Shown here: one piece after another, positions 32,827 through 60,747 of the stretch
How the letters are laid out: every line of letters starts with the position of its first letter
Position numbering within the stretch: the stretch's first letter is position 1
NCBI GenBank assembly: GCA_964515295.1
Contig: CAZETW010000003.1
Coordinates: 4,768-68,767 of the forward strand
Length of the DNA: 64,000 nt
Direction: 5' to 3'
Origin: an uncultured bacterium
Lineage (GTDB): Bacteria; Zhuqueibacterota; QNDG01; CAYUAG01
Translations under genes and position numbers: made by a program
Notes under the pieces: model-generated
What the model was told of the DNA's origin: nothing
The model's input: only the letters and a program-made list of their open reading frames with translations
The model's database searches: none

Positions 32827-34362
32827 TTATTTATTCTTATCATCAAATGATATAGTATCAGTTTTATTTACCAGCCATATAGTAGAACCAGTAAAACAGG
32901 AATCCTGCCATAATAAAGATGCATTATTTTTCAGCCATGTATTAATATTTTCTTTAAATGGTGAATCTGGTAACAGTCCGTCTGTAGTAAAAATAAGGTT
33001 TTTAAATTGAGCAGACAGTGAGTCCATTTCAGAGGTGGATTCTATCTGTATTCTTCGCACTGTTGGATTATTAAAGGAAAGTTTGGATAAGTAATACCGA
33101 ATACTGTAGTCTCCCCATTCAGGGATGGAAATAATGGTTGTGTTCTCAGAATTATATTCAGATATATATGATATTCCCTTTTCCCAGTCAGGTTTTTTTT
33201 GATTTATATAATAATAATAAAGAATATAAGAATTAATTGCGGTTAATAGTATTACAATTACTTTTATAGAGTTTGTGTGAGAAGCATGATGTATCTTAGT
33301 TTTTTTAAAACCGGCTGTTTTCCCCCAAAAATGTGAGATTATGTTGCCTAAAGAGACTGCAGAGCAGGTTAACAATAAAAGATAAGGAATAAGGAGAAAT
33401 ATCAGGAATCTGTAACCACTGCCGAAATAGATAACGAATGTACTCATCCAGCTCAGCAGTAAAGAAAAAAGTATTATATAACCGTTAAAAATAAATATTT
33501 TTTTGTATTTGTTCCATCCGGTTATCATGCCTGATATGATAAATAATCCCATAAAATATTTAATATATCTGTCTAAGAAGCAATGGGGAAGATCTACTGG
33601 ATTTATTAAGTTTTTACCAAATATTAATATAAAATGAAGCGGATGTATACTGTGACGATATGAAGTAGATGCACTAAGCTTAGCAGAGGTTTGTTGAAAG
33701 AAAAAGAATGATTGCGGTATATGGCCAATAAAGATAATTAACAAGGAATAAAAGAACCATTTTTGATATTTAAAAGATGATTTTATGTTTTTTGTAAAGA
33801 GTAAATAAAAAATATATAAGGATATTTGCGAGGCAAGCAGAATCAGGGAAAAATAGTGGATGTAAAAATTAACTATGCTGACTCCTGCCCACATCAGCCA
33901 GTCATGTTTTTTCTGATATATCACAGCTTTGTAAAGGAATACAAAAGATACAAGAGATATCAAAAGAAAAAGTGAATAAACGCGTGCTTCCTGAGAATAA
34001 CGAATATGAAAAACTGATACAGTAAGCAGAAGGGCTGCTATTATTGCTTCTTTTTTCCCGATGATACGATGAGTGAGAGAATAAAATAATGGAACAGCTG
34101 CAATACCACATAAAGCAGAAAAGAAGCGAAGTGCAAATTCAGATTTACTCAGTTTAACTATAAAGTGAATAATTAAATAATAGGTTGGGGGGTGAACATC
34201 CCACCCATAAGAGTTTTTTATGATTTCAGAAAAACCTAAAACCGCTCTGTAAAAAGTAATGGCTTCATCAAACCACAGACATTCTTTTCCTAAGTTATAT
34301 AGTCTGAGGAAAATTGCTAAACCTAAAATAAGATAAAAAAGGATTGATTGTTTGTTTTTCAT
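32827..34362 (-). CDS. GT-C membrane glycosyltransferase, PMT/ArnT-like (GT39/GT83 family)
   Basis: 511 aa, polytopic; first external loop LRLYNLGKECLWFDEAITFYRA carries the DE-xx-Y motif of lipid-carrier-dependent GT-C enzymes. Confidence 0.75.
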   Translation of the reverse strand: MKNKQSILFYLILGLAIFLRLYNLGKECLWFDEAITFYRAVLGFSEIIKNSYGWDVHPPTYYLIIHFIVKLSKSEFALRFFSALCGIAAVPLFYSLTHRIIGKKEAIIAALLLTVSVFHIRYSQEARVYSLFLLISLVSFVFLYKAVIYQKKHDWLMWAGVSIVNFYIHYFSLILLASQISLYIFYLLFTKNIKSSFKYQKWFFYSLLIIFIGHIPQSFFFFQQTSAKLSASTSYRHSIHPLHFILIFGKNLINPVDLPHCFLDRYIKYFMGLFIISGMITGWNKYKKIFIFNGYIILFSLLLSWMSTFVIYFGSGYRFLIFLLIPYLLLLTCSAVSLGNIISHFWGKTAGFKKTKIHHASHTNSIKVIVILLTAINSYILYYYYINQKKPDWEKGISYISEYNSENTTIISIPEWGDYSIRYYLSKLSFNNPTVRRIQIESTSEMDSLSAQFKNLIFTTDGLLPDSPFKENINTWLKNNASLLWQDSCFTGSTIWLVNKTDTISFDDKNK

Positions 34363-34542: not shown

Positions 34543-36222
34543 ATGAGATTATTTGTAAAGCCTTTCAAAAATACGGTTCCCTTTATTATTGTTGTACTTC
34601 TTCTTTTACTTCGGGCAGCATGGGAATATGTGGCTCCGGTGAATCCGGATGATTTCAAGGGCCTGATATATCTGAGAGATATAGTGTTTGTTTTTCCAGC
34701 TAGTTTAATATTAACTTACACACTGTTTATACATGTTGATTCCATAGTCTCTGAGAAAATAAACTATTTGGACTGGATTCAGAAGAGAAAACGGATAATA
34801 ACATTTATAATGGCTGTGATAATTTTCTGCCTGTGTTTATTATTAAATATATTTGTCTATAAGACCTGTGCTCATATTGTGGATGAAGCAAATTATCTTT
34901 TTCAGGCAAAGGTTTTTGCATCAGGAAGGTTATGGGCACAACCTCCCGAACTTTCCAAAGAATTCTTTCACCTTCTTTATTTTGTCCAGACTCCGGATAA
35001 ATGGTACGGTTCATTCTTTCCAGGTCAAAGCTTACTGCTGGCTTTAGGGATACTGTTAAAAATGCCTTTTCTGATCAATCCTTTTCTTACAGCTGTTCTT
35101 TTAATAACCACAGTTTGGGCAGGTCAAAAAATTTATTCGGCACATACCGGGATAATAGCAGGATTTTTTTTGCTGTGCTCTCCTTTTGTATTGTTTCAGG
35201 GGGCAAGTTATTTTTCACATATTCTCCCGGCAATAATTATTACTGTATTACTGGTATGGATTGCAAGGTTTGGAGAGTTTACTCATAAAAAATGTATTAT
35301 CAGCGGATTAATAACAGGAATGCTTTTTCTCTTTCGTCCACTATCGGCATTTGTCATAATTGTATTTTTTTTATTTTATATTGTATTCCAAGTTATAAAA
35401 AATAAAGATTTCAATGTTAAGGTTGGTATCAATTTTCTGATTCTGTTCGGTATCGGATTGTTGCCGGGGATTATATTGTTGTTAGGATATAATTATTATT
35501 TAACCGGTCAATATTTTACCACACCTCATCAATTAGCGTTACCCAATGAAACCATGCGGTTTGGAATTCATTCATTAAAAAATACTTTAATTAATGTAAC
35601 GGGACTTTCAGTTGATTTATTGGGATTACCCTTAATATCTTTGATTCCTGTTATTTTATTTTTTATTTCCCGCTGTCAATATTCAAAATTGTTTTTGATT
35701 TTCAGTGTTATGTACTGTATAGCATACAGTATATACCCGTATCACGGATTGAGTTACGGACCCCGGTTTTATTTCGAGCTGGTTCCCCTCTTACTTATTG
35801 GTTCTGTACAGGTATTGTTGAAAAAATGTACTTTTCCAAAGAGGAAATTAACCGGATTATTTTCATCTTTATCTAAAAATGCAATTATTATTACATTATT
35901 TATTACAGTTCCTGTTATTTCTTTTCTGGGTATAGTACCGTGGAGAGTTTCAGTATTTGTCAACAGGGGGGAATATTATAACATTAAAGATACTGTACAA
36001 AAAAAGGTTATACCTCCTGCAATCGTCTCAATAAAAAGTTCTGATAAAGAACGTATGATACCGTATTTGGCTGGTTTTCAACTAAATTCTCCAATCTGGA
36101 AAGGAAATGTTATATTTGTTCATTATTTACCAGAGAAAAAAGATGAAATAATGATGAAATATCCTGAAAGACGTCATTATATACTGGATATGGACAAAAA
36201 AATTGTTATTTCAGATACTTGA
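34543..36222 (+). CDS. putative GT-C-type membrane glycosyltransferase
   Basis: 559 aa, ~11 TM helices; early loop HIVDEANYLFQAKVFASGRLW resembles DE-xx-Y loop of ArnT/PMT. Confidence 0.55.
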   Translation: MRLFVKPFKNTVPFIIVVLLLLLRAAWEYVAPVNPDDFKGLIYLRDIVFVFPASLILTYTLFIHVDSIVSEKINYLDWIQKRKRIITFIMAVIIFCLCLLLNIFVYKTCAHIVDEANYLFQAKVFASGRLWAQPPELSKEFFHLLYFVQTPDKWYGSFFPGQSLLLALGILLKMPFLINPFLTAVLLITTVWAGQKIYSAHTGIIAGFFLLCSPFVLFQGASYFSHILPAIIITVLLVWIARFGEFTHKKCIISGLITGMLFLFRPLSAFVIIVFFLFYIVFQVIKNKDFNVKVGINFLILFGIGLLPGIILLLGYNYYLTGQYFTTPHQLALPNETMRFGIHSLKNTLINVTGLSVDLLGLPLISLIPVILFFISRCQYSKLFLIFSVMYCIAYSIYPYHGLSYGPRFYFELVPLLLIGSVQVLLKKCTFPKRKLTGLFSSLSKNAIIITLFITVPVISFLGIVPWRVSVFVNRGEYYNIKDTVQKKVIPPAIVSIKSSDKERMIPYLAGFQLNSPIWKGNVIFVHYLPEKKDEIMMKYPERRHYILDMDKKIVISDT

Positions 36223-36480: not shown

Positions 36481-38181
36481 ATGAACCGGATAATATATAA
36501 TAAATATTTTTCTAAGATTTATCACAAAATAATTGAGCATTGGGAAATGCTCATGTTTTTAATTATTGGTTTTGTGATTCGTTTATTCTTGACAAGATAT
36601 CAGGAAGTTGTGTCATATGATGAAGTAAATTATCTTAAATTAGCTGTTTACGGAGCGATACATGGCATAATGAATGTTATGCATACATATTGGTCACCCT
36701 TTTATCCATTTATTATTGCTTTATTCTCCAAGATTTCGTCAAACTATGAGATCATTGCCAGACTTATTTCAGTATTCTGCGGCAGCCTGGTGATATTGCC
36801 TTTGTACAAGCTTGCACGATATCGACTGACAAAAAAAACTTCTGTAATCACTATTGCTATGATAGCCCTGTACCCTGCTTTGTCTTCATTGAGTGCTAAA
36901 ATATTAACAGAATCTCTCTACATATTTTTGGGAATATCCGGAGTATTGGTTATCTGGAATTCTCTTACGAAAAAATCGCTTGGATTATCGTTTTGTGGCG
37001 GAGTTGTTTTTGGGATGACCTACTTGACTCGTCCTGAGGGGATAGGATTTATTATTATTGTGATAATGATCAATCTTATTCTTTTAATTAACAGTATGTT
37101 TCAGAGAAAGAAAAATAAGTATATTCAATTGGTGATTTTTTCTGTATTAGGATTTATAATAACTTCTTCACCATATTTATTATTCTTGCATCATAAAACA
37201 GGTGAATGGACCATAAGCGCAAAGCAAAAGTCTTTACAGCAGGCAGAGGCTGATGTATTTAAACATGAAAAAGAAGACTATCAATTCAGAAAACTTTCTG
37301 CTGATAATAAATCACTTCTTATTGATCAAATGTTTCATCTTGGAAATTTTATTACAGCAGAAGAAGAAAGAGGAGAGCCTGTAGTTCAGGTGACGTTATT
37401 TTTAATGGTCCAGAAATATATTAAAAATTTCCATGAATTAATTAATATGATAGTTCCTACCGTAATTCCGCTTACACTGGCTGTATTCTTAATTCTGGGT
37501 CTTTTCTGTCGGACAGGGGGAAAAGAGAAAATATTGTTTGATTTGTATCTTCTGAGCTTTATAATCTTTTTTTGGGGTATTGTTATCCCGCTTTTTCATA
37601 TTAATTACCGATATTTTTTACCAATATTACCAATATGTTTCATCTGGATTGGTAAAGGCGTGGTTGTTTTTTATTCCTGGGTGAAGAATTTATTTCATAA
37701 TCTTATCATATGGAAAAATAAGAAGTTATTTATTCAAATGATATCTTTATTATCAGTATTTCTTTTTATTTCTTTGTCGTATGTACCTGATTATATAAAA
37801 TTTTTTACTGACAATACTGCTGCTGCCACCAGATGGGCAAAGCCGGTTGAATATAAAAGAGCTGGTTTATGGTTAAAGAATAACTGTACAACAACACCTG
37901 TTGTAATGAGCCATTATCAAATCGTAAGTTACTATGCCGGGAATTATGATATAACTGAATCGGTTAGTATCCCTTTCAACACTATTGATAGGGTGCTGGA
38001 ATATGCTGAATATAGAAACGTAGACTATCTTGTTTTATCTGAAAGATATGTAAGACTGTTTCCTCTCATTGAAAATCTTTTTTATATGAAAAATATACCT
38101 GAGAAATTAAAGGTTGTGTATCATTTTGAAAGCAAAGCAGATTTGAGAGTAGTTATTTATAAATTAATGCATGATAAATGA
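36481..38181 (+). CDS. GT-C membrane glycosyltransferase, PMT/ArnT-like
   Basis: 566 aa polytopic; first loop LTRYQEVVSYDEVNYLKL (DE-xx-Y); large C-terminal soluble domain. Confidence 0.7.
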   Translation: MNRIIYNKYFSKIYHKIIEHWEMLMFLIIGFVIRLFLTRYQEVVSYDEVNYLKLAVYGAIHGIMNVMHTYWSPFYPFIIALFSKISSNYEIIARLISVFCGSLVILPLYKLARYRLTKKTSVITIAMIALYPALSSLSAKILTESLYIFLGISGVLVIWNSLTKKSLGLSFCGGVVFGMTYLTRPEGIGFIIIVIMINLILLINSMFQRKKNKYIQLVIFSVLGFIITSSPYLLFLHHKTGEWTISAKQKSLQQAEADVFKHEKEDYQFRKLSADNKSLLIDQMFHLGNFITAEEERGEPVVQVTLFLMVQKYIKNFHELINMIVPTVIPLTLAVFLILGLFCRTGGKEKILFDLYLLSFIIFFWGIVIPLFHINYRYFLPILPICFIWIGKGVVVFYSWVKNLFHNLIIWKNKKLFIQMISLLSVFLFISLSYVPDYIKFFTDNTAAATRWAKPVEYKRAGLWLKNNCTTTPVVMSHYQIVSYYAGNYDITESVSIPFNTIDRVLEYAEYRNVDYLVLSERYVRLFPLIENLFYMKNIPEKLKVVYHFESKADLRVVIYKLMHDK

Positions 38182-40597: not shown

Positions 40598-42274
40598 ATG
40601 TTAAAAGACAAAAAAGTAACATATAAACATTTTTCAATAATACTTTTAATACTATTACTGTTGATTGGTGGATTCTTGAGATTATGGAATTTAGGTGAAC
40701 GTAGTTTATGGGTTGATGAAGTAAACACCGTATTTGCTGCTCAGTCAATGAAAGATACAGGTGTGCCTGAACATCCATCCGGTGTGATATATAACATAAC
40801 TCCCTTGTTTACTAAGTGTGTATCATTAATCTATCAGGTATTGGAAGTTGATGAGGCTTCTTCACGCATACCTTCAGCAATTTTCGGGATTCTTGCAATT
40901 ATTTTGGTTTTTTATTGCGCAAAAACTGTTTTTAACAGGAGTGTAGGGTTATTTTCAGTATTTTTAATGACATTTTCTCATTTTGAAATAGGATGGTCCA
41001 GAGTTTCAAGACCATACACCTTGTTGCAGGTTTTTACATTATTGGTAGTGATATTTTTTATTAAAGGATTTGAGAATCCAAAATATAATCGAAAAAATTT
41101 TAACAATGTAATTTCGAAGCAAAATAAATTTAATCAGTTAAGAAGTTCACTGGCACATTTACAAATTTCCCCTCTCTGGTTATTACTATTTATTGCTGTT
41201 TTGGGCTATTCATATTTAGAAATCAATGATTTAATGGTATTTGTTGCAGGTGGTTTTTGTGTTTATATTTTTTTTATGAGTTTAGTGGGATTGTATTGGA
41301 AAGAAAGGTATAAAAAAATTATAAATAAATATTCTGTTTGTTCTGCAGTAATTATTCTGCTTGGAGTGATTTATTTTTTGTTTTCTCAGGGTCTACAGAA
41401 TGACATCAATTTTTTTCTGGGATATACTCCTCCCTGGGCAGTAGAATCATCACCAGTAACTGACAATTTGTATTTATTTAATTTTTTAATATCCAGTATG
41501 AAATTTCCTATAGCTGTATTTTTTTTCCTTGGCTGCGTACAGCTGATGAGTCACAGAAATCGTTTAGGCTGGATATTATTGTGGGTATTTATAGTGCCGC
41601 TTTTTTTGTTATCCTTGGTATTTACTCATAGAGCACCCAGATATTTATTTTTTGTTTATCCGTTTTTTCTTATTATAAGCAGTTACGGATTTATTAATAT
41701 TGTACAAAATGAGTTCGAAATACTGAAAAAAGATTTAATTTTTAAATACAAATGGTTACAATACTGTATTATCTTTGCCTTTTTTATAATATTCTTGATA
41801 TCTCCCTGGTTTCGATTCAGTTTGAAGATTCCATTTCAAGGTGATGGTGTTACAAACGGAGCCGTCACCACGGATGAATGGAAGGAAGCAGCTGGAATAG
41901 TTAAGTATAATATGAAAATGGATGATATAGTAATAACGAGTCTCCCTCAGGTTGCATATTATTATAATGTAAAATCAGATTATGGTTTGAACTGGATCAA
42001 TCTTAATCGTGCTGAAATTCAGTCTTTTAAAAATGATACAGGTCACTACATTGATATTTATGCAGGTATACCATGTATAGCATCTTTGGATGAATTAAAA
42101 CAAATTGTGGAATCAAATGAACGGGGATGGATTATTATTACTCAATATCATTTTGAACATACTAAAGTAATTCCTGAGGAGGTAAGAGAATACATAGAAA
42201 CAGAATTTAACGTAGCATATAGGACAAAAAAAGGAACAATTTTAATCTATTTATGGAAACCAAATTCGGAATAA
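40598..42274 (+). CDS. GT-C membrane glycosyltransferase, PMT/ArnT-like (fourth copy)
   Basis: 558 aa polytopic; first loop LRLWNLGERSLWVDEVNTVFAA (DE motif); C-terminal soluble domain. Confidence 0.7.
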   Translation: MLKDKKVTYKHFSIILLILLLLIGGFLRLWNLGERSLWVDEVNTVFAAQSMKDTGVPEHPSGVIYNITPLFTKCVSLIYQVLEVDEASSRIPSAIFGILAIILVFYCAKTVFNRSVGLFSVFLMTFSHFEIGWSRVSRPYTLLQVFTLLVVIFFIKGFENPKYNRKNFNNVISKQNKFNQLRSSLAHLQISPLWLLLFIAVLGYSYLEINDLMVFVAGGFCVYIFFMSLVGLYWKERYKKIINKYSVCSAVIILLGVIYFLFSQGLQNDINFFLGYTPPWAVESSPVTDNLYLFNFLISSMKFPIAVFFFLGCVQLMSHRNRLGWILLWVFIVPLFLLSLVFTHRAPRYLFFVYPFFLIISSYGFINIVQNEFEILKKDLIFKYKWLQYCIIFAFFIIFLISPWFRFSLKIPFQGDGVTNGAVTTDEWKEAAGIVKYNMKMDDIVITSLPQVAYYYNVKSDYGLNWINLNRAEIQSFKNDTGHYIDIYAGIPCIASLDELKQIVESNERGWIIITQYHFEHTKVIPEEVREYIETEFNVAYRTKKGTILIYLWKPNSE

Positions 42275-42295: not shown

Positions 42296-44407
42296 ATGAA
42301 TAATAAATTGAAAAAAAGAAAAGGAAAAGTGTTTGTTACCGGTGCATCTGGTTTTGTTGGATCACATATTGTTGACCGGCTTGTGGATGAAGGCTATGAA
42401 ATTGTAGTATTAGTACGACCTACCAGTGATATCAAAAATCTGAAAAAACCTGGCATTCATATGATTACTGGCGATATTCGTGATGAAATAATATTATCAC
42501 AAGCTGTAAAAGGAGTTGATACTATTGTTCATGCTGCAGCTACATTTGTGGGTGATTGGGATAATCATTATGAAATAAATGTCAAGGCAACCAGAACTCT
42601 GTTGGAAAAGGCACGTCTGGCAGGAGTTAAAAAAGTTATCCTTATTAGTTCCATTAGTATATACCCGTTATCAACCATAAAAAAAGGGCAGGGTATATCT
42701 GAGGATATGGGATATGAAGAAAAAGATCTGAACAATTATTCAAGATCTAAAATTGAACAGGAAAAGATTGTAAAAGAATATCATAAAGAATATGGAATAA
42801 AGTATTCAATCATTCGTCCGGGTTCTATTTATGGACCCAGAGGACCACTGTTCCCAGCTATGACCGGTCTTGCTTTAGGGAACAGTCGAATTGCCCTGAT
42901 TGGAAGAGGTAAAAATCCTGTTCCTTTATCCTATGTTGAAAATGTTGCAGATGCTGTTTTGCATTGCATCGAAAAAGAAAATACTGACACCAAGATTTAT
43001 AATCTGGTTGAAGATACCTTACTTACTCGTAAGGAATATCTTAATGCCATAAGAGAAAAAGTTGATCCGGATTTATCAGTTATTAAAATGCCCTATATCT
43101 TATGGTCAATATTAAAATTTTCACTCAGAACTGTTTTTGGTCTAATGGGCAGGAAGGCGCCATTAAGTGATTTAAATTTAAAAACTTATTCTATGAGATT
43201 AAATTTTTCTACAGACAGATTTAAGAGTGATATACGAAGCAGACCTTATATAGCTTTTGATGAGAGTATTAACAGAACTTTACATTGGTATAAGAGCAAA
43301 CGGACACCCAAGCGTTCAACCGGACTGGCGGAACACTATAAAGTTGATATTCCCACCACAAAAAAGCTAAAAATCGGAATAGTAGGATGTGGGGGAATAT
43401 CCATTGAACATTTATCTGCACTCCATAAAATGAAAAATGCTCAATTAACTGCTCTTGTTGATGTGAATCAGGAAGTTCGCGAGTACATGGCAAAAAAGTT
43501 TAATGTCAGTAATACCTTTGCTAATGTTGATAAGATGCTTTCCACAATGAAGCTGGATGCCGTACATATTATTACACCTCCTCAAACTCATAAAGACATA
43601 GCAATTAAAGCTATGAATAAAAAATGTCATGTATTCGTTGAGAAACCTATGGCAGTTGATGCTGAGCAAGCACGTACAATGATGCAAGCTGCCAGAGAAA
43701 ATAATGTAAAATTATGTGTTGATCATAATATCCTTTATGATGAGGTGATGATTGATGCCCGGAAAATACTGGCAGATAATATTATTGGGGATATTGCTTA
43801 TGTGGAATGCTGGTTTGGAACTGAATTTAATCCTTACGGACCCTACGGGAATAAAGATCATTGGGTATATGAACTCCCGGGGTTATTATATCAAGATTTT
43901 ATTGTCCATCCTCTCTATCTCTTACTGGATATAATGGGTGAAGCTGAGTGTAAGAATGTTTCATCCAAATATATCCGTTCAGTTCCTTATATGGACAGCG
44001 ATGAGCTGATTGTTACTTTGGAAAATAAAGAACAATTCGGAACTTTGCATTTATCCAATGCCGTTTCTCCCCGGTATCAGTTTTTACATATTTATGGAAC
44101 AGAGGGCACGTTAAAAATTGACTTTCTGAATAAGTTTACTTTTGTTGATAAAGGCATCTCTATGTTACCCAAGACCATCAATCGCTGTATGACCAGCCGA
44201 AAACTTGGTTCACTATTAAAATCAAGTGCAAGAAAAAATTTGTTCCAGGGATTAACTGGTAAATTCAGTCTTTGTACGGGGATTGACCGGTTAATACAGC
44301 TTTTTTATCGAAGTATTTTACTGGATGAGCAAGTACCTGTATCCGGAGAAGAGGGGCTTCGATCTATGGAAATAATGGATAAAATCTGGCACCACATTAA
44401 ATGTTAA
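42296..44407 (+). CDS. fusion protein: extended-SDR epimerase/dehydratase + Gfo/Idh/MocA-family NAD(P) oxidoreductase
   Basis: 703 aa; N-terminal VFVTGASGFVGSHIV...YSRSKIEQE; C-terminal KIGIVGCGGISIEHL...FVEKPMA...typical Gfo/Idh/MocA N-domain. Confidence 0.8.
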   Translation: MNNKLKKRKGKVFVTGASGFVGSHIVDRLVDEGYEIVVLVRPTSDIKNLKKPGIHMITGDIRDEIILSQAVKGVDTIVHAAATFVGDWDNHYEINVKATRTLLEKARLAGVKKVILISSISIYPLSTIKKGQGISEDMGYEEKDLNNYSRSKIEQEKIVKEYHKEYGIKYSIIRPGSIYGPRGPLFPAMTGLALGNSRIALIGRGKNPVPLSYVENVADAVLHCIEKENTDTKIYNLVEDTLLTRKEYLNAIREKVDPDLSVIKMPYILWSILKFSLRTVFGLMGRKAPLSDLNLKTYSMRLNFSTDRFKSDIRSRPYIAFDESINRTLHWYKSKRTPKRSTGLAEHYKVDIPTTKKLKIGIVGCGGISIEHLSALHKMKNAQLTALVDVNQEVREYMAKKFNVSNTFANVDKMLSTMKLDAVHIITPPQTHKDIAIKAMNKKCHVFVEKPMAVDAEQARTMMQAARENNVKLCVDHNILYDEVMIDARKILADNIIGDIAYVECWFGTEFNPYGPYGNKDHWVYELPGLLYQDFIVHPLYLLLDIMGEAECKNVSSKYIRSVPYMDSDELIVTLENKEQFGTLHLSNAVSPRYQFLHIYGTEGTLKIDFLNKFTFVDKGISMLPKTINRCMTSRKLGSLLKSSARKNLFQGLTGKFSLCTGIDRLIQLFYRSILLDEQVPVSGEEGLRSMEIMDKIWHHIKC

Positions 44408-53030: not shown

Positions 53031-55880
53031 ATGGTACAATATACATCTTTTTATAGAAGAAAGTTTTTTAAATATGCAGTTATCACATCATCCATTTTTC
53101 TTTTACTTAATGCAAATATGTTAGCTCAGCATTTAGCTCATCAGGGGCATTCACATCCGCGGTCTGCAGTGTTCCATTTCAGTGGCCGGCAGCCCGAGTG
53201 GTATGCACGTTTTGATATGGTTATTACTCCGCTTACTCATGACGGGTTTGCTCAGTCTGTTCATGCAATCAATCCGGATTGTTATGTTCTTGCCTCCAGA
53301 GACTGGAATGTCGATGAGTTAATGGATATACCGGAAGAATGGCTTCTTAGAGATTCAAATGGTAATCCGGTACGAGCTTATGGAGGTCGAAGTAATTTAA
53401 TAGATATCACTGAGTACTGTTCAAAAAGCCCTGCGCATGGCGGTAAAAAGTACAATGAATTTTTACCAGTATATATGAGTACTCTTGTCGATTATTCCAT
53501 TTATGATGGCATTTGTTCACAGGGAGTATGGAATCATCCTTATAATACCGATGATGTTGATATAGATGGTAATGGAGTAAATGACTGGGAGGAACATGGG
53601 AAAAACTGGCTTATTAATGTATGGACTCAGGGAGTTGAAAAAGCTGTAGAAGTGTTACGCAATATAATTGGTGATGATAAAATTATTTTTTTAAATTCCG
53701 GGAATTTTCATACATTTGCATGGTATCATTCTAACGGTCTGATGAAAGAACGTTGTAATAAAACTTTTAATGTAAAATGGGAATTAAATAAGTTTTACCG
53801 GTGGGAGAGTTCTGCTCCCTATCCACATACTTTTTTCTTTAATTCCTGTGGACCATCTAAGAATGATTTTTATAATATGAGGTATTTCATTGGTAAAGCT
53901 CTGATGTATAATGCCTATTCCAGTTATACTGATTATGCATCCGGAGAACATCACTATACTAAATATTATGATGAATATGACATTAATCTAGGATTTTCCA
54001 CAGATAGTGTACGGCAGGTAACCTATAGTGAGATCAAAAATGAGCAGGGTATATGGGCAAAATTTTATGATAATGGAGCAGTTATTATTAACATGGATAA
54101 TTATAACAATACAATAACTGATGCTCAACTACAGACACTTGATTATTATGACGGACCATATTATCGGTTCTTAGGCGGGCAGGATCCTGAATTTAATAAC
54201 GGAGAATTGTTTACGGAAGTAACCCTTAGAGGAGAAGCACGATCTTTAGATCCACTGGGTTTTGTCGGTGATGCAATAATTTTATTGAAAGAACCTGATA
54301 CTGTGGTATCTGATATCATTATTGATGATATTGATGCCGGCACTTCTCCTGGGAGTAATGCGGCCAAATTTAAAGGAACCTGGACAAATTCAGCGGATAA
54401 TAATTATGCATTCTGGGGGGTGGGCGGAAGAGCTTACCGTAATCTGTATAATTATGCTAAAATTCAACCCGGACGGGGAGAAGCATATGCAGAATACATC
54501 CCCACTATTGGAGTACCGGGCAATTATGAAGTTTTTGAATGGCATGGATTCCTGGGAAGTAATGAGGAGACTATACAGGAAGCAACCAATGTTCCTGTTA
54601 TTATTAAATTTGCCGATAATGAAGTTGCAGAAGGCTTTATTGATCAATCCAAAGATTATAAACAGTGGAATAGTTTAGGTACGTATTATTTTACTAAAGG
54701 CACAAGCGGAGGGGTTAAGATAACCAATGATGCCGACGGACAAGTTATGGCAGATGCATTTAAATTTGTCTATAAAGGAGATGATCCTGATGACACTGTA
54801 CCACCTAATCCTCCGGAAAATTTACAGATGACTGACCATTCAGAGCATACTATAACTCTAACCTGGGATGCTCCCGGAGCTGCAAGTGACGGAGACGGTG
54901 CTGCAGCTTATCAGGTTTTCCGTAACGGACATTTGGTCGGAAGGCCTTTTGATACTACCTTTATTGATGAAGGATTATATGAAAATACCAATTATACCTA
55001 TGAAGTATACTCCATAGATAATGTAGGTAACAGAAGCTCCTCAAATATTCAGGATGTTTTTAAAACATATACAGATTATGTTCCTCCTGAAATCGTTCAT
55101 GCTCGCTTAATAAATGACACTAAACTGGAAATTCTTTTCAGTGAAAAGGTCGACCAGACAAGTGCTGAAACTCCTTCAAATTATGATGTTGACAATGGAA
55201 TTATAGTAGATAGTGTGGAAATGGACATTGCAGATTCAACTATGTATTATTTAACCACCAGTAAACATGTAGTCGGGGTTCATTACAGTGTTTCAGGACG
55301 TGATATTGTGGACCTGGCTTCAACCCCGAACAAGATAGATCCCAGTAAAACTGTGGAATATATCGGTATTACCGGTGATTCCTTAAGAATTACCATTACA
55401 GCGGATAATGTTTATAAGTTATATGTAAATGGTTATTATATTGCTGAAGCAGACGGGTGGAGTGATGCCGAGACTTATGAAATACCAACCATTGGTGGTA
55501 CGAATCTGATCGCAATTCAGGCAACTGACAGAGGAGGAGAAGCGGCAATCCTGGCAGAAATTGAATTTGGAAATGAGCAGTTTGTTACAAACGAGAATTG
55601 GAAAATTACAACATTCGAAGAAGCTGGATGGGAGACATTATCCTTTGAAGATGCGTTATGGGAATATGCTACAAGCTGGGGGCTACACGGCTCAGCTGAG
55701 CCCTGGGCAAAGTATACAGATGTTGAAGGTATTTCAACATCTTATCCTGTACACTGGATTTGGTCTTCTGATTATATAAATGATGATGTGGTGTATTTCA
55801 GGTTTACCCTGGATTATGAAGGCGATAATACAGCTCCTCAACCACCAGCGGATGTATCTGTAAACTCATCGTATCAATAA
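53031..55880 (+). CDS. secreted multidomain protein: putative glycoside-hydrolase-like TIM-barrel domain + FN3 + Ig-like + beta-sandwich carbohydrate-binding-like domain
   Basis: 949 aa; signal peptide; N-terminal ~450 aa resemble GH114/GHL15-type putative polysaccharide hydrolases; FN3 at ~aa 590-690 (ENLQMTDHSEHTITLTWDAP...YTYEVYSIDNVGNRS); C-terminal region with rhamnosidase-N/CBM-like LYVNGYYI motif. Confidence 0.55.
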   Translation: MVQYTSFYRRKFFKYAVITSSIFLLLNANMLAQHLAHQGHSHPRSAVFHFSGRQPEWYARFDMVITPLTHDGFAQSVHAINPDCYVLASRDWNVDELMDIPEEWLLRDSNGNPVRAYGGRSNLIDITEYCSKSPAHGGKKYNEFLPVYMSTLVDYSIYDGICSQGVWNHPYNTDDVDIDGNGVNDWEEHGKNWLINVWTQGVEKAVEVLRNIIGDDKIIFLNSGNFHTFAWYHSNGLMKERCNKTFNVKWELNKFYRWESSAPYPHTFFFNSCGPSKNDFYNMRYFIGKALMYNAYSSYTDYASGEHHYTKYYDEYDINLGFSTDSVRQVTYSEIKNEQGIWAKFYDNGAVIINMDNYNNTITDAQLQTLDYYDGPYYRFLGGQDPEFNNGELFTEVTLRGEARSLDPLGFVGDAIILLKEPDTVVSDIIIDDIDAGTSPGSNAAKFKGTWTNSADNNYAFWGVGGRAYRNLYNYAKIQPGRGEAYAEYIPTIGVPGNYEVFEWHGFLGSNEETIQEATNVPVIIKFADNEVAEGFIDQSKDYKQWNSLGTYYFTKGTSGGVKITNDADGQVMADAFKFVYKGDDPDDTVPPNPPENLQMTDHSEHTITLTWDAPGAASDGDGAAAYQVFRNGHLVGRPFDTTFIDEGLYENTNYTYEVYSIDNVGNRSSSNIQDVFKTYTDYVPPEIVHARLINDTKLEILFSEKVDQTSAETPSNYDVDNGIIVDSVEMDIADSTMYYLTTSKHVVGVHYSVSGRDIVDLASTPNKIDPSKTVEYIGITGDSLRITITADNVYKLYVNGYYIAEADGWSDAETYEIPTIGGTNLIAIQATDRGGEAAILAEIEFGNEQFVTNENWKITTFEEAGWETLSFEDALWEYATSWGLHGSAEPWAKYTDVEGISTSYPVHWIWSSDYINDDVVYFRFTLDYEGDNTAPQPPADVSVNSSYQ

Positions 55881-55918
55881 ATATGTGATGTTAATGTTAT
55901 TATTTAAGAGTAAAGAGT

Positions 55919-56611
55919 ATGATTATATCTCATAAATATAAATTTATCTTTCTTAAGACAAACAAAACAGCGGGCACAAGTGTTGAAATTGCTTTATCAA
56001 AATTTTGTGGTCCAAATGATATTATTACACCTGTTACCAGAGAAGATGAGAAAACAAGAAAAAAATTTGGTTATCCTGGTCCGCAAAATTGTCTGGCGCC
56101 TGTAACAGATTATGGTTTGAGAGACTGGATCCGTTTAATTGTAAAAGCAAGAAGAAAACTTACCTATTATAATCATATTTCTGCTGTTAAGGTAAAAAAA
56201 TTAATCGGAGAAGAAATTTGGAATAATTATTTTAAATTTTGTATTGAACGGAATCCCTGGGATCGTTTTCTGTCATTTTATTACTGGATCAATCAGTCTG
56301 AACCGCGTCCGACAATTTTGGATTTTGTCAACTCAAAAGTTCCCTTAATACTCAAGAGACGAGGATTTGAAGTCTACACCATTAATGGAAAGATTGCTGT
56401 GGATAAAGTTTGTTTTTTTGAAAACCTGAAAGAGGATTTAGAAGAAGTGAGGATCCGGATAGGATTACCTGAAAAGTTAGATCTGCCCAGAGCCAAGTCT
56501 ACCTACAGAAAAGACAGACGAAGCTATCGTGAAGTATTAAATGAAAATGAGAGAAATAAAATAAAACAATTATTCAATCAGGAAATTTCGTATTTTGGCT
56601 ATGAGTTTTAA
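55919..56611 (+). CDS. sulfotransferase, galactose-3-O-sulfotransferase-like family
   Basis: 230 aa; 5'-PSB-like FIFLKTNKTAGTSV (cf. Gal3ST FLKTHKTASST); 3'-PB-like RNPWDRFLSFYY. Confidence 0.6.
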   Translation: MIISHKYKFIFLKTNKTAGTSVEIALSKFCGPNDIITPVTREDEKTRKKFGYPGPQNCLAPVTDYGLRDWIRLIVKARRKLTYYNHISAVKVKKLIGEEIWNNYFKFCIERNPWDRFLSFYYWINQSEPRPTILDFVNSKVPLILKRRGFEVYTINGKIAVDKVCFFENLKEDLEEVRIRIGLPEKLDLPRAKSTYRKDRRSYREVLNENERNKIKQLFNQEISYFGYEF

Positions 56612-57540
56612 ACAAATTTTTTGTAATCTGTCTTAACAGTATATGGTAAGGTTAATAATGAAGTTAAAAATTTTAAGGTTTTGTTAAGATTGATTTGATT
56701 GTCTTTTTTTATAACGATAGAATTTTTGAATCTGTCAGGATTACCTGATAGATCATGTCTTACTTTTTTAAAATTAATTTTTCTGTTTGTCAATATATCA
56801 TCAACAGTATCATCTATCCCGATAAAATTGAATACTTGTTTAAGTTCTTTATTTGGGTTCTCTAAAAATTTTTCTAAATAAAGTTTATAATAATTTGTAT
56901 TATGGAAAAATTTTTCACTGAAAAGATTAAGTCTGATGTAATTTTCACAGGATTTTAAAAATGGTCTGTTACCCATTGTAATACTTCTATCTTTTGTAAC
57001 AACCTGTTTTTTCTTTTTATAACTGGCAGAATAGATAGCACCTCTGGGGTTTCTAATGACGTGTAAATAATAAACCTTGAAATCAGGCATATAGTTAAGC
57101 AGAATACCATATAAATAGTGCTTAGAACTATCAACAATTATTTTCTTATCGGAATTAAACACTATGGAATTATATATATTATTTAATAATAAAATATAGT
57201 CTTTAAAATAATTCTTAACATAGTTAATATATAATTTGTTAATTGGCAGGTATGGTAAAATCTTGAGTATTGTATGGTGTGTTGTTATATCATACTTTTT
57301 ATTGTTATAGAATTCATTCTTATCATTGACAGGTAAATGTATAGTTTCAAAAACATTGTTCCAGAATGTACAAGTATGAAAATCGGAGCCGCAGTTACAT
57401 TGCCAGTTTTCCTTAAATCCCCTATGCCACAAATACCAGAATTCCCCTATGCTCATTATCTGATCATTTTCATTCAGAATATTACTGATTAAAGTGGATC
57501 CGCTCCGTACCATTCCGCTAATATACACTATTTTTTTCAT
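56608..57540 (-). CDS. sulfotransferase (PAPS P-loop RSGST type, Stf0/Sulfotransfer_3-like)
   Basis: 310 aa; VYISGMVRSGSTLISNIL 5'-PSB loop. Confidence 0.65.
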   Translation of the reverse strand: MKKIVYISGMVRSGSTLISNILNENDQIMSIGEFWYLWHRGFKENWQCNCGSDFHTCTFWNNVFETIHLPVNDKNEFYNNKKYDITTHHTILKILPYLPINKLYINYVKNYFKDYILLLNNIYNSIVFNSDKKIIVDSSKHYLYGILLNYMPDFKVYYLHVIRNPRGAIYSASYKKKKQVVTKDRSITMGNRPFLKSCENYIRLNLFSEKFFHNTNYYKLYLEKFLENPNKELKQVFNFIGIDDTVDDILTNRKINFKKVRHDLSGNPDRFKNSIVIKKDNQINLNKTLKFLTSLLTLPYTVKTDYKKFV

Positions 57541-57569
57541 GAAATTATCCTTACACTGGGAGCGTTATT

Positions 57570-58184
57570 TTATACTTTGTTTTTTATATCAGTAATAATG
57601 TTTTTTAATTTTTTTGCGATTTTACGATGTACCCGTTCTTCTTTTTTACGAACTTCAGCTTTGTTTCTATGGGGAAAAAGAATATTCGGGATTTCTTTCT
57701 CTAAAAAAGGACAAAGTTTTTGCCAGCCTTCTGCTTTAATTAAATCTAAAATCAACAAGTCATTCGGGCGGTTTTTAAAATAAGCTAAAACGTCTTTATT
57801 ATGATTTTCATATTTTTTAATGTATATCTCTTCATTGCCTTTAGGACAGCCAACACCGTATATCCATTTTCTCATCGGAGTTTTTCTTCTACCAAAATGG
57901 CTTACCATACTTTTAATCCATGAATCAGTATTTCTTACTGTAAGAATAAATTTACTGCCAGGATATGATTTGTCCATTTCTTTATAAATTATAGGCCAGG
58001 GATTATCCTGAAATGCATCATATTGTTTAACCAGATTATGGGCCATGGTATACACATTCTGAGCAATTTTTGAGTCTTTTACTCCATTGGGACCCGTAAT
58101 GCTATAGCCGAGTTTTGAAAGTGCAGTTGCAAGAGATTTTGTTCCGGTTTTGTGAAAGCCGATACAGAATATTTTAGTTTTCAT
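57570..58184 (-). CDS. sulfotransferase family protein (small bacterial Sulfotransfer_4-like)
   Basis: 204 aa; IFCIGFHKTGTKSL (5'-PSB-like) and TVRNTDSWIKS (3'-PB-like R...S). Confidence 0.55.
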   Translation of the reverse strand: MKTKIFCIGFHKTGTKSLATALSKLGYSITGPNGVKDSKIAQNVYTMAHNLVKQYDAFQDNPWPIIYKEMDKSYPGSKFILTVRNTDSWIKSMVSHFGRRKTPMRKWIYGVGCPKGNEEIYIKKYENHNKDVLAYFKNRPNDLLILDLIKAEGWQKLCPFLEKEIPNILFPHRNKAEVRKKEERVHRKIAKKLKNIITDIKNKV

Positions 58185-58593
58185 GAAAATTTCCTTTTTT
58201 TATCACTTAACATTCAATTTTATTAATTCAGGAAAGTAAAATAATAAAAAATTTCAAAAAAAACAATCATAAAACCATCTCAGATATTTCATCATAGGTA
58301 TGATTTTTGCTTGTTAAATATTTGATAATATATAAATTGGTTGATCAATAAGAATGGGCATAAAAAAATAGTATAATCAGGTATATTTTTTAAAAAAATA
58401 TTGACAATTATTTATTATTAAAAAGGTTATAAATAATTCATTGATTGATAGTAATAATTTTTAACAGTTGTTAAAAATACCAAGAAAAAATGAGAAAATT
58501 TATTTTATGAAAAATCTTTCATATTGAATGACAGGTAAATGTGCAGTATAACGATGAAAAAGTATACCATAAATTACTTTAAGGTGAAATAAA
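58185..58593. promoter_or_regulatory. 409-bp AT-rich divergent intergenic region between sulfotransferase genes (-) and sugar-binding MCP-domain gene (+)
   Basis: No ORF >60 aa; TTGACA at ~58401; RBS AGGTGA 8 nt before ATG 58594. Confidence 0.3.
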
Positions 58594-60747
58594 ATGGCTA
58601 ATGTATATAAGAATATTTTGAAACAAGGGAAAATATTATTAAAAGATCTGAATAACTGGAAGAATGCCATGGCCAATCTTTCTCAAGGAGATCTTTCCAC
58701 TTGCCTTGCTATTGAAGCCAATCCTGTGAAAATACCAGATACCCAGAAGAAAACACAATTGAGTATACTGAACCAGATCATCAGTAATTTGCATGAAGTA
58801 GCAGCTGAATTTAATTTAGTTACTGATAAACCATGTAAAAGATTGTGTTATGTGGGTGGAGATTCATTTCTGGAAGGGCAGCGATGTGGTGAATTTATGG
58901 GTAAAATTCTTAATGGCAAAGGTCAGGTGGCAGTCGTAACAAATGTTTTTGGCTATGCAAGTACTGAATTAAGACGTAAGGGATTAGAATCAGTTTTTAA
59001 GACCTTATTTCCAGGAATACATATTGTCGATATTATCGAAAGTCGTGACAGTACAGAAATAAGTTATAAAAAAACAACATCATTGATTAAAAAACATTCA
59101 CATTTAAATGGCATATATATTTGTGAAGGTGCAACCCCTCATGCTGTAGCACAAGCGGTTATTGATGCTGAAAAAAAGGATAAAATAAAAATAATAGCAC
59201 ATGACCTGACCAGTACCATCATTGAGTTCATTGAAAAAGGTGTAATAACCGCAGTACTTGATGAAAACCCATATGCTCAGGGATTTAATCCGGTTATTCA
59301 TCTTTTTAATCATCTTGTAGATGATTGGGAACCTCACGTTCCACGACTGCTCACTGATATGAAGTTTGTAACCCAAAAGAATTATCATAAATACTGGAAT
59401 GAAGAAAAAAAATTAATTCAGTCTCAGGATAGTCTGGATAGGCTGGCAAAACCGGTAGACAAGAAACCTTCCAAACCTATTCGCATTGCAATGATGGGCA
59501 GAGTTGATTGTGAATTCTGGTTGCCGGTTAAGGAGGGTTCTCTCGCTGCCAAAAAGTTATTAGAGACCAAAGAAAATGTTCAGGTTGACTTAATTATACC
59601 TGAAGAAAACAGAACCAAGGGACTATTTGGTCCAGATGTATTTGTACCTGCATTCAAAAAACTTATCCAGGAAAAATATGATGGTATCGGTGTTATTGCA
59701 TCAGATGCAGAACTGGTCCCGCATATTAACCGTGCAGTTGAAACCGGAATACCAGTGGTTACTTTGAACAGTGAACCTTTCAATCTGCGCAGTTTGATGC
59801 TGTCTATTACAGATCAGGCTGATAAACTTATGGGCTTAAGTGATCAGTTATCCGTGAGCACCACTGAAACAAAAGCAATGACATCAAACATAAATACAGC
59901 CATGGATGAAATGTACCAGGGAACGCTGTCACAGAATGAAAATGTAAAGAAAACCCAAGATACGTTAAATTATTTACTGAAAAATATTAAAACAGTTAAT
60001 GAAGAAACTGAAGAAAATACCAAAACTGCTGAGGAAACTGTCAAAGCAGTTACCAGCGGCACTATGGCAATGCAGAAAACTATTGAGAGTCTCCGCATGG
60101 TAGAAAATTCTGTATCTGATTCCTGGCAGGTAGTTGAAGAATTAGGAGATTATTCCAATAAAATTGATAAAATTATGTGGTTTATCAATGATATCGCCAC
60201 AGAAATAAATATCCTGGGATTAAATGCCAATCTGGTTTCAGTAAAAGCAGGTAAGTACGGAAAAAGTTTTGGTGTGGTAGCCAGTGAAATACGTAAAATG
60301 GTGCAGGAGACCAAGGATCATACAACAGAAATTTTTAATCTGATTGAAATGTTTAAAGAAGGGATAAAAAAGGTAGAAAATGTAATGAATTCCGGATTGG
60401 AGAAGATCAAAAGTTCAGCGAGTTTATCAGATGAAGCAGTCTCAGCAATAAAAGATATTCGCGAATATGTTACCCTTAATCAAGAACGTATGAATAAAAT
60501 TTCATCTTCTTTAAATGAAATTGAAACGTTTTCTCAAGATGTTGATGTTGCCATGCACAATGTGACAAGTGTAAGTGAACAGAATGCTGCGGAAGTGGGA
60601 AAGGTGAATAATTATACCAAAGAGATGGAACGCCAGTTAAATACTGTAGAATCAATGACTAAAACATTATTGCAGATGGCTGAATCAGAAAAACAGCAGC
60701 TGGCAAAGTTTAATGTTGCTGAAAAAGATCAATATCACCGGCCTTAG
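58594..60747 (+). CDS. soluble chemoreceptor-like protein: periplasmic-binding-protein (sugar-binding, type I) fold + methyl-accepting chemotaxis protein signalling domain, no TM segment
   Basis: 717 aa; N-terminal LacI/RbsB-like PBP halves (aa ~80-290 and ~300-400); C-terminal MCP highly conserved region ILGLNANLVSVKAGKYGKSFGVVASEIRKMVQETKD; no hydrophobic helix. Confidence 0.75.
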   Translation: MANVYKNILKQGKILLKDLNNWKNAMANLSQGDLSTCLAIEANPVKIPDTQKKTQLSILNQIISNLHEVAAEFNLVTDKPCKRLCYVGGDSFLEGQRCGEFMGKILNGKGQVAVVTNVFGYASTELRRKGLESVFKTLFPGIHIVDIIESRDSTEISYKKTTSLIKKHSHLNGIYICEGATPHAVAQAVIDAEKKDKIKIIAHDLTSTIIEFIEKGVITAVLDENPYAQGFNPVIHLFNHLVDDWEPHVPRLLTDMKFVTQKNYHKYWNEEKKLIQSQDSLDRLAKPVDKKPSKPIRIAMMGRVDCEFWLPVKEGSLAAKKLLETKENVQVDLIIPEENRTKGLFGPDVFVPAFKKLIQEKYDGIGVIASDAELVPHINRAVETGIPVVTLNSEPFNLRSLMLSITDQADKLMGLSDQLSVSTTETKAMTSNINTAMDEMYQGTLSQNENVKKTQDTLNYLLKNIKTVNEETEENTKTAEETVKAVTSGTMAMQKTIESLRMVENSVSDSWQVVEELGDYSNKIDKIMWFINDIATEINILGLNANLVSVKAGKYGKSFGVVASEIRKMVQETKDHTTEIFNLIEMFKEGIKKVENVMNSGLEKIKSSASLSDEAVSAIKDIREYVTLNQERMNKISSSLNEIETFSQDVDVAMHNVTSVSEQNAAEVGKVNNYTKEMERQLNTVESMTKTLLQMAESEKQQLAKFNVAEKDQYHRP

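Follow-up and report, generated by a model that had tools for sequence, protein, structure and literature searches.

A soluble chemoreceptor-type protein from an uncultured bacterium with a circularly permuted sugar-binding-protein fold set between a HAMP-like module and its signalling hairpin

The stretch of DNA analysed here (the window; 64,000 nucleotides of contig CAZETW010000003.1, from an uncultured bacterium of the Zhuqueibacterota) is occupied from about 7.5 to 58 kb by a large polysaccharide locus of ~50 kb. Just beyond it lies the gene studied here, whose product combines the fold of a type-I periplasmic binding protein (PBP) with the signalling domain of a methyl-accepting chemotaxis protein (MCP); its features are collected in Table 1. 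The original prediction for this DNA had given the open reading frame (ORF) its exact position, and had described the N-terminal 400 residues as a type-I sugar PBP. The assignment of that domain stands, with 129.2 bits for Pfam Peripla_BP_4 (PF13407; cut-off 35.1), but its outline does not: the protein begins with a HAMP-like module of ~76 residues, which is followed by a circularly permuted PBP. The original reading missed both features, as well as the membrane anchoring of most family members. We regard the architecture, and the permutation of the PBP at inter-lobe hinge 1, as essentially certain, and the receptor is a real new architectural variant of chemoreceptor, widespread in uncultured bacteria.

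Table 1. Features of the receptor gene and of its surroundings, in positions of the window.
Feature	Positions	Strand	Basis
Soluble PBP-MCP receptor gene	58594..60747	+	complete ORF, 717 aa; Pfam Peripla_BP_4 and MCPsignal; ratio of nonsynonymous to synonymous substitution rates (dN/dS)
Upstream intergenic region	58185..58593	+	409 nt, AT-rich; sequence and translations
HAMP-like two-helix module, aa 1-76	58594..58821	+	AlphaFold2; Pfam HAMP matches of homologues
PBP second part (C-lobe and return segments), aa 77-262	58822..59379	+	phmmer against PDB, Pfam, BLASTP
Linker, old C-terminus to old N-terminus, aa 263-295	59380..59478	+	sequence comparison, collinear match to P0122
PBP first part (N-lobe strands beta1-beta4), aa 296-397	59479..59784	+	phmmer, Pfam, AlphaFold2
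MCP signalling hairpin, aa 398-703	59785..60702	+	AlphaFold2, Foldseek, Pfam MCPsignal
Hairpin tip, clade-specific LGLNANLVSVKAGKYGKSFGVVA, aa 534-567	60193..60294	+	alignment, tip scan, dN/dS
Near-match methylation site 'TSVSEQNAAE', aa 658-667	60565..60594	+	motif scan, 9/10 positions
Sulfotransferase gene, last of the polysaccharide locus	57570-58184	-	409 nt from the receptor gene, divergent
PMT_2/ArnT-like GT-C glycosyltransferase genes	32827-34362 (-), 36481-38181, 40598-42274		

The gene is complete and its start is secure. An AAGGTGA ribosome-binding site (58581-58587) stands ahead of the ATG, and because an in-frame TGA lies 6 nt upstream of that codon (58585-58587) and stops are abundant in all three frames of the upstream region, an N-terminal extension or a hidden signal peptide is impossible. 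Kyte-Doolittle windows and inspection of the start codon gave no transmembrane (TM) helix or signal peptide anywhere in the protein: the N-terminus is hydrophilic and the top 19-residue mean is 1.14, the benchmark for a TM helix being roughly 1.6. The same TM-less start is common to six orthologues (P0001-P0006, at 61-91% identity; P-numbers denote protein homologues and L-numbers the encoding loci of this analysis). The absence of signal peptide and TM segments that had been predicted is thus borne out, and an alternative start that would uncover either was rejected on these grounds. With a dN/dS of 0.10-0.15 against the orthologues over the whole gene, and with the start that they share, this is an intact gene under purifying selection. 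We also rejected a pseudogene, or a truncated remnant of a TM receptor, given this dN/dS and an architecture that is conserved among seven members of the clade and also in a second subgroup without TM segments. At the C-terminus, the predicted MCP signalling domain is confirmed by Pfam MCPsignal (PF00015; 86.1 bits, cut-off 34.6), which covers aa 503-660, and by the motif LGLNANLVSVKAGKYGKSFGVVASEIRKMVQE at aa 541-572. NCBIfam holds no specific family for the receptor, giving only far-sub-threshold matches to named MCPs and sugar-binding proteins, and an exact-sequence look-up of the protein returned no identical record. The 409-nt leader has no match in Rfam, for which reason a riboswitch or other regulatory RNA was rejected, and its promoter- or terminator-like matches are not above chance.

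The permutation is supported by several independent comparisons. In its native order the protein gives two Peripla_BP_4 stretches, the best of which (aa 81-234) covers only profile positions 93-247. Once the pieces are re-ordered (aa 296-397, then aa 77-295), a single stretch is obtained that scores 140.6 bits versus the 129.2 of the split match, with aa 296-397 falling on profile positions 12-89 and aa 77-295 on positions 94-247. Searching all PDB sequences with phmmer, we found that aa 77-240 correspond to residues ~90-255 of the glucose-binding protein of Thermotoga maritima (2qvc/2h3h) and to residues 120-280 of GanP (6gq0), and that aa 298-394 correspond to residues 4-92 of 2h3h/2qvc. BLASTP against P0147, the closest ordinary secreted PBP, yields high-scoring segments in swapped order (query 71-268 onto 166-362 and query 286-394 onto 69-171). 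P0122, a secreted tandem-duplicated PBP of 693 aa, is instead matched in one collinear segment (query 71-394 onto 165-499, 34.5% identity, E = 4e-64); P0191 (647 aa) is a further secreted protein of the tandem-duplicated kind. Two half-PBPs, or a degenerate domain, were rejected as readings of the split match, since the re-ordered sequence forms one higher-scoring Pfam stretch and the match to P0122 is collinear. The AlphaFold2 model of the receptor, built on an alignment of 93 family sequences, has a predicted local distance difference test (pLDDT) value above 90 over aa 80-400, and places four N-lobe strands at the end of the domain (296-301, 329-334, 364-367 and 388-391), also with pLDDT above 90. 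Foldseek matches the sensor to sugar PBPs, namely 2h3h, GanP, AraP and XylFII.

It follows from the permutation that the chain both enters and leaves the PBP at the inter-lobe hinge. The first piece, aa 77-262, is equivalent to residues ~90 to the end of a standard PBP; its start at the hinge is marked by the conserved junction 'EFN..T..PC.RLCYVG.DS.LEG..CGE'. A second conserved junction, 'GIPV.T.NSEP.SLR.L', closes the other piece, aa 296-397, at hinge 1. The domain therefore departs from the standard sequential strand order of PBPs (N-lobe first, three crossovers), and it also lacks their export signal and the genomic company of an ATP-binding cassette (ABC) transporter, the protein having no signal peptide or TM segment and no ABC transporter genes lying nearby. 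As to how the permutation arose, the linker AKPVDKKPSKPIRIAMMG shares homology with the leader VKPVDKQPSKPLRIAVLG at the mature N-terminus of secreted relatives, and both free ends of the domain resemble a hinge motif ('VTLNSEP' and 'VTDKP' versus 'TIDTDAP' in GanP). Because of these two features and of the existence of P0122-type proteins, which look like a duplication/deletion intermediate, the data agree with the classical origin of circular permutations by duplication and deletion. A peculiarity of the first piece is the set of Cys81, Cys85 and Cys98 (nt 58834-58887), conserved in at least 90% of the 93 family members, at positions where secreted relatives carry N, F and A, C85 corresponding to a core Phe. 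A metal or Fe-S site at these residues is unlikely, as none of the three is kept throughout, each being singly substituted in some members (C81S, C85F, C98G).

On either side of the PBP lie helices. Before it, AlphaFold2 predicts two helices (2-30 and 50-76) joined by a loop, with pLDDT 75-90, and the module includes the motif 'NLSQGDLS'. In P0031 the homologous segment scores as a Pfam HAMP domain (PF00672; 33 bits, cut-off 25), P0007 gives a HAMP match as well, and both map to aa 19-67 of the receptor; helix 1 of the receptor exceeds that of a canonical HAMP by some two heptads, and no TM segment precedes it. After the PBP, the signalling hairpin consists of two continuous helices (398-551 and 553-703) with arms of about 155 and 150 aa, ~22 heptads each, and is of the 44-heptad type; Foldseek aligns it to TM1143 of T. 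maritima (2ch7) with a target-normalised TM-score of 0.80. The PBP is in-line between these two elements: the second HAMP-like helix runs straight into the C-lobe, and the N-lobe strands lead, through the second junction motif, directly into helix 398-551. The near-invariant residues of the family are concentrated at the two junctions of the PBP.

The binding cleft of the permuted domain has been kept. We mapped the ribose contacts of the Escherichia coli ribose-binding protein (RBP) onto the re-permuted alignment of the 93 family members, which are at 32-47% identity; for RBP we used what we take to be its correct sequence, and all 11 listed contact positions carry the expected residue types in it. 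The contact R141 is R and D215 is D in 93/93 members, F15 is F in 91/93, F16 is W and D89 is N in 88/93 each, Q235 is Q in 82/93, and R90 is S in 74/93. In the closest secreted, signal-peptide-bearing substrate-binding proteins the contact residues are identical to those of the family, and the nearest solved relatives of these proteins bind glucose/xylose (the T. maritima glucose-binding protein), glucose/galactose (GanP), arabinose (AraP) or xylose (XylFII). Since the contacts thus match those of secreted proteins whose solved relatives bind monosaccharides, the ligand is most likely a monosaccharide or a close derivative, encountered in the cytoplasm. Could the domain nonetheless have lost ligand binding and serve as a structural or dimerisation scaffold, or as a module for protein interaction? 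Several contacts of the family do differ from those of RBP (R90 to S, F164 to D/E, N190 variable), and the Cys conserved near the hinge are unusual for PBPs. However, the two aromatic contacts and those made by Arg, Asp, Asn and Gln are invariant or nearly so in the 93 sequences and identical in secreted ABC-type relatives, which must bind their ligand, whereas cleft residues are seldom conserved in scaffolds. We consider such a loss of binding very unlikely. The genes beside some members are weak but consistent support for a sugar ligand, as a sugar isomerase, an FGGY kinase, an aldolase or a LacI regulator is encoded there in several loci (L074 and L055). The cytoplasmic carbohydrate sensor of the original prediction therefore survives in part: the cytoplasmic location follows from the lack of TM segments, the CUT2-like fold and the canonical contacts are there, and sensing of a sugar-type ligand in the cytoplasm is likely, the sugar itself being deduced.

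The receptor belongs to a large family. Our first search recovered 243 full-length homologues, all with Peripla_BP_4 and MCPsignal, and 295 encoding stretches were found in GTDB species representatives, often in several copies per genome. The metagenome-assembled genomes (MAGs) that carry them are labelled KSB1, Acidobacteriota, Anaerolineae/Chloroflexi, Spirochaetota/Treponemataceae, Ignavibacteriota/Bacteroidota and Fibrobacteres; a cultured bacterium, Brevefilum fermentans, appears to carry a member too (L042). In most members the protein exceeds the receptor of the window by 60-80 aa and starts with a TM hairpin: 70/93 aligned members (~75%) have two hydrophobic segments with a short loop between them, and the other 23 have none. 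The receptor forms, together with P0001-P0006, a soluble clade. In the anchored members the PBP comes after the TM hairpin and the HAMP domain and before the cytoplasmic signalling domain, so that it must be cytoplasmic in these forms too. The sensor module is not restricted to MCP hairpins. With both junction motifs intact, it is fused to a SpoIIE/PP2C phosphatase in P0040 and P0081 (63% and 58% identity to the module of the window), and in P0135 and P0138 (589-591 aa) a TM hairpin, a HAMP-like module and the permuted PBP are followed by an AraC-type helix-turn-helix (HTH) output, which by their domain content makes these two proteins membrane-anchored one-component transcription factors using the same sensor. 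Given the same junction motifs with MCP, SpoIIE and AraC outputs, the sensor behaves as a portable input module. A further, independent solution for bringing this PBP into the cytoplasm of a chemoreceptor is seen in P0180-P0183 (721 aa), which have a TM hairpin, HAMP, MCPsignal and, at the C-terminus, a PBP of the same subfamily in standard order.

The genomic contexts of the family speak to its output. In an Anaerolineales MAG (L031, 947-15264), two tandem family genes head a complete che operon, in the order cheW, cheY, cheA, an unassigned ORF of 214 aa, cheD, cheY, cheB, cheR and cheX, which is followed by a flagellin gene; a CheW gene adjoins a family member in five loci. Because members precede the che operon and flagellin in the former case and neighbour CheW in the latter, we take the family as a whole to be, as judged from gene order, chemoreceptors of flagellar chemotaxis systems. 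The original prediction was right that the window has no che genes, since annotation of every ORF of at least 100 aa revealed no che or flagellar gene in it, and the Che-like output that it proposed is plausible in view of the relatives that lie directly upstream of a che operon. For the clade of the window the balance of the evidence favours, by extension, a Che-type output. That its lineage encodes flagella is seen from the surroundings of the gene for the SpoIIE paralogue P0040 (contig L084, 1-6747), which is flanked by a sigma-54 activator, fliE and fliN and, on its other side, by flgN; such a context suggests that in this lineage a sugar signal controls the expression of flagellar genes or the assembly of flagella. 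Clustering of 946 ORFs from 79 loci showed no universally conserved neighbour across the family. In two KSB1-type MAGs (L008 and L018, 1-9000) the genes upstream of the family member resemble, by eye, those of a GHMP sugar kinase, of an N-acylglucosamine 2-epimerase-like protein and of a Gfo/Idh/MocA oxidoreductase with a twin-arginine translocation (TAT) signal.

Taken together, we read the protein as a soluble, class-IV-like methyl-accepting chemoreceptor with a cytoplasmic, hinge-permuted, CUT2-type monosaccharide-binding Venus-flytrap sensor, and we think this reading is probably, though far from surely, the correct one. The chain passes from the HAMP-like helix (aa 50-76) straight into the C-lobe, completes the fold and the recruited linker, forms the N-lobe strands beta1-beta4 and exits through the same hinge into helix 1 of the hairpin, so that the input and output helices are attached to different lobes. 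In the mechanism that we propose, closure of the lobes upon ligand binding would alter the relative geometry of the two helices, and with it the packing of the helical bundle, and the changed packing would modulate a kinase complex of the CheA/CheW type.

Several observations weigh against this reading. The coupling of hinge to helix is a geometry deduced purely from topology, and aa 1-80 of the receptor have no Pfam HAMP match even at E <= 10, which is why we call aa 1-76 only HAMP-like. In the pocket, the subclade of the receptor deviates at three equivalent positions (C306, E178 and E224), and the ligand named above is a prediction from sequence comparison. A scan for the methylation consensus [ASTG][ASTG]xx[EQ][EQ]xx[ASTG][ASTG] returned no strict site in the receptor; 21-33 of the 93 family members have the strict motif at the position of its near-match. 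Finally, the partnership with CheA/CheW is one that we infer for the query clade, and here the tip of the hairpin calls for caution. Where relatives have 'LxLNAAIEAxxAGE.G.GFxVVA', the clade has LGLNANLVSVKAGKYGKSFGVVA, with the changes A383N, E385V, A386S and E391K in Tsr numbering, and the E385V change breaks the near-universal 'NAAIEA' motif. Outside the clade, an exhaustive phmmer search of 1.84 billion representatives turned up no signalling domain above 43% identity; a word-index search with the signalling domain alone had given one match, which carried no information. Because of this departure and of the lack of a close signalling domain, coupling to a standard CheA/CheW complex is not assured.

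An alternative is that the architecture is as described but that the hairpin of this clade no longer controls CheA, its remodelled tip binding another partner, be it a non-motility chemosensory system or a regulator. The core of the tip, LGLNANLVSVKAGK, with E385V, A383N and A386S, is found in this clade only among the 346 MCP-type sequences scanned, as is Val at the position of Tsr E385. It is also strongly constrained: the tip remains 89-98% identical within the clade even where identity in the PBP domain falls to ~50%, and its dN/dS is 0.011-0.025 versus about 0.1 for the whole gene, which points to a lineage-specific partner interface, whether with a co-evolved CheA/CheW or with another protein. 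In ordinary genomes, paralogous MCPs have very similar tips, and the distance of this one from every other signalling domain would be in keeping with a changed partner, as would the absence of a strict methylation motif. There is a precedent in a chemoreceptor-like regulator of flagellar genes reported from E. coli (PMC12623472). Yet, compared with the canonical consensus (…LALNAAIEAARAGE.GRGFAVVA.EVR…), the equivalents of LxLNA, K/R388, G390, F396, E402 and R404 are retained, together with the 44-heptad geometry. The position of E391 is variable across the family, including in members that lie in che operons, the lineage carries flagellar genes, and no alternative partner is encoded nearby. 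We see a switch of partner as possible but rather unlikely, and keep the CheA/CheW-type receptor as our working interpretation.

The position of the gene next to the polysaccharide locus had suggested a different role, namely that the receptor feeds a Wsp/Dif-like pathway which senses precursor sugars and controls the adjacent sulfated exopolysaccharide (EPS). The neighbourhood gives this idea some substance, as the gene lies so close to the last sulfotransferase gene of the locus, a relative at 89% identity is arranged likewise, the locus starts with a gene for a STAS-domain protein, and the lineage also has a SpoIIE paralogue of the sensor. Still, the receptor is transcribed divergently from the nearest EPS genes, the last sulfotransferases, and the arrangement is not kept. 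Orthologues at 76%, 63% and 61% identity preserve the downstream block SPOR-YebC-RuvC-RuvA-RuvB-QueA-IspD-IspF (in the contexts of P0003, twice, of P0005 and of L061), and SPOR-YebC-RuvCAB is present in all orthologues with downstream sequence, but upstream of the 76% and 63% orthologues (P0003 and P0005) there are a MoxR and a Na/Ca exchanger gene instead of a glycan locus. Among the orthologues with upstream sequence, the EPS neighbourhood is found again in the 89%-identical relative and in no other, and no EPS genes recur beside the family members at 77 loci. Since the orthologues keep the downstream block and not the EPS locus, the adjacency is recent and probably incidental: most likely the locus was inserted, without any relation to the receptor, ahead of a conserved MCP-SPOR-YebC-RuvCAB block. 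With no che cluster in the window and with members elsewhere in flagellar che operons, coupling of the receptor to EPS is unlikely, and we give the Wsp/Dif-like proposal hardly any credence.

The locus itself contains Wza-like and Wzc-like proteins, a priming transferase, many glycosyltransferases (GT2, GT4 and GT-C), two AsnB-like proteins, Wzx, Wzy, several epimerases and three sulfotransferases. The gene of the STAS-domain protein (6675-7379, +; 234 aa, 56 bits) immediately precedes the Wza-like (7549-8229) and Wzc-like (8254-10539) genes; the protein could be a partner-switching regulator. Among the three PMT_2/ArnT-like GT-C genes there is an ORF of 559 aa without Pfam match (34543-36222, +), and further on a 703-aa fusion of an NAD-dependent epimerase/dehydratase with a GFO/IDH/MocA oxidoreductase (42296-44407, +). 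The end of the locus (53031-58184) encodes a protein of 949 aa, a Golvesin_C/fn3 protein by the annotation of the 89%-identical syntenic copy, and then the three sulfotransferases, which belong to three Pfam assignments (Sulfotransfer_2, Sulfotransfer_1/3 and Sulfotransfer_4), the last two on the opposite strand.

How does this receptor compare with known systems? Soluble class IV chemoreceptors include TlpT and TlpC of Rhodobacter sphaeroides, TlpD of Helicobacter pylori and TM14 of T. maritima, and Aer is a class III receptor with a cytoplasmic sensor. The family resembles both classes in joining an MCP hairpin to a cytoplasmic sensor, and includes soluble as well as TM-anchored members. To our knowledge, the sensors of cytoplasmic chemoreceptors are of the PAS, CZB, globin or GAF type, placed N- or C-terminally; here the sensor is a type-I PBP, permuted, and in-line between the HAMP-like module and the hairpin. 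RBP and the galactose/glucose-binding protein of E. coli signal to Trg as periplasmic binding proteins (PMC8050422), and they share with the receptor the Peripla_BP_4/CUT2 fold, most of the sugar-contact positions and the link between sugars and chemotaxis. They differ in being separate, exported proteins that dock on the periplasmic domain of a receptor, whereas the domain described here is covalently attached, cytoplasmic and permuted. The cytoplasmic repressors of the LacI/GalR type also sense sugars with a type-I PBP fold, but in standard order, behind an N-terminal DNA-binding domain and with a transcriptional output; our sensor-module search retrieved one LacI-HTH relative, P0186, with the same 'CKRLC' segment.

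The solved relatives closest in sequence and fold, GanP and AraP of three-component sugar-sensing systems, XylFII-LytS and the periplasmic domain of the hybrid two-component system BT1754 (2x7x), likewise use a CUT2-type PBP as a signalling input, but they are extracytoplasmic, have the standard order and act as docking or terminal domains, none being in-line at the hinge. A natural circular permutation of a type-I sugar PBP, with N-lobe strands at the C-terminus, has been described in TpMglB-2 (Tp0684), a glucose-binding protein of 'Type Ic / Cluster Bc' in which the first three strands of the N-lobe are moved and which is a periplasmic lipoprotein of an ABC transporter (PMC4990184). In the receptor, by contrast, the relocated strands number four (beta1-beta4), which sets the break at hinge 1, and the domain lies in the cytoplasm as part of a receptor; the phmmer PDB matches of the receptor do not include TpMglB-2, that is, no close sequence relationship was detectable. 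None of the NCBIfam models or of the solved structures reached by phmmer against PDB and by Foldseek covers this architecture. In the limited library searched we came across no account of a PBP fused to an MCP or of such a permutation, an absence that does not prove novelty.

A bolder proposal extends these observations. The HAMP-like module and the hinge-permuted PBP may form an unrecognised portable input module that turns the closure of the flytrap into a two-helix motion and has at least three outputs (the MCP hairpin, a GAF-SpoIIE phosphatase in a flagellar cluster, and an AraC DNA-binding domain), and the tip of the query clade (E385V and the accompanying changes) may have been retargeted from canonical CheA/CheW to report cytoplasmic sugar status to a non-chemotaxis output. 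We put this forward tentatively, as the less expected of outcomes and one that is improbable as a whole; if true, the module would be a natural counterpart of the engineered biosensors based on circularly permuted PBPs.

In bacterial sugar chemotaxis as textbooks describe it, free periplasmic binding proteins dock onto receptors; cytoplasmic receptors, though common, mostly have no assigned signal. The family described here represents a third solution: its sugar flytrap sits in the cytoplasm, opened at the hinge and connected in series to the helices that signal. Such a design suggests a simple and mechanically transparent route from lobe closure to helix displacement. It also offers a traceable evolutionary path, from a secreted substrate-binding protein through a tandem duplicate to a permuted insert, and a ready-made modular sensor that is seen with three different outputs. 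For KSB1, Acidobacteriota, Anaerolineae, Spirochaetota and Ignavibacteriota, it provides a candidate mechanism for a metabolism-linked, uptake-dependent sugar taxis.

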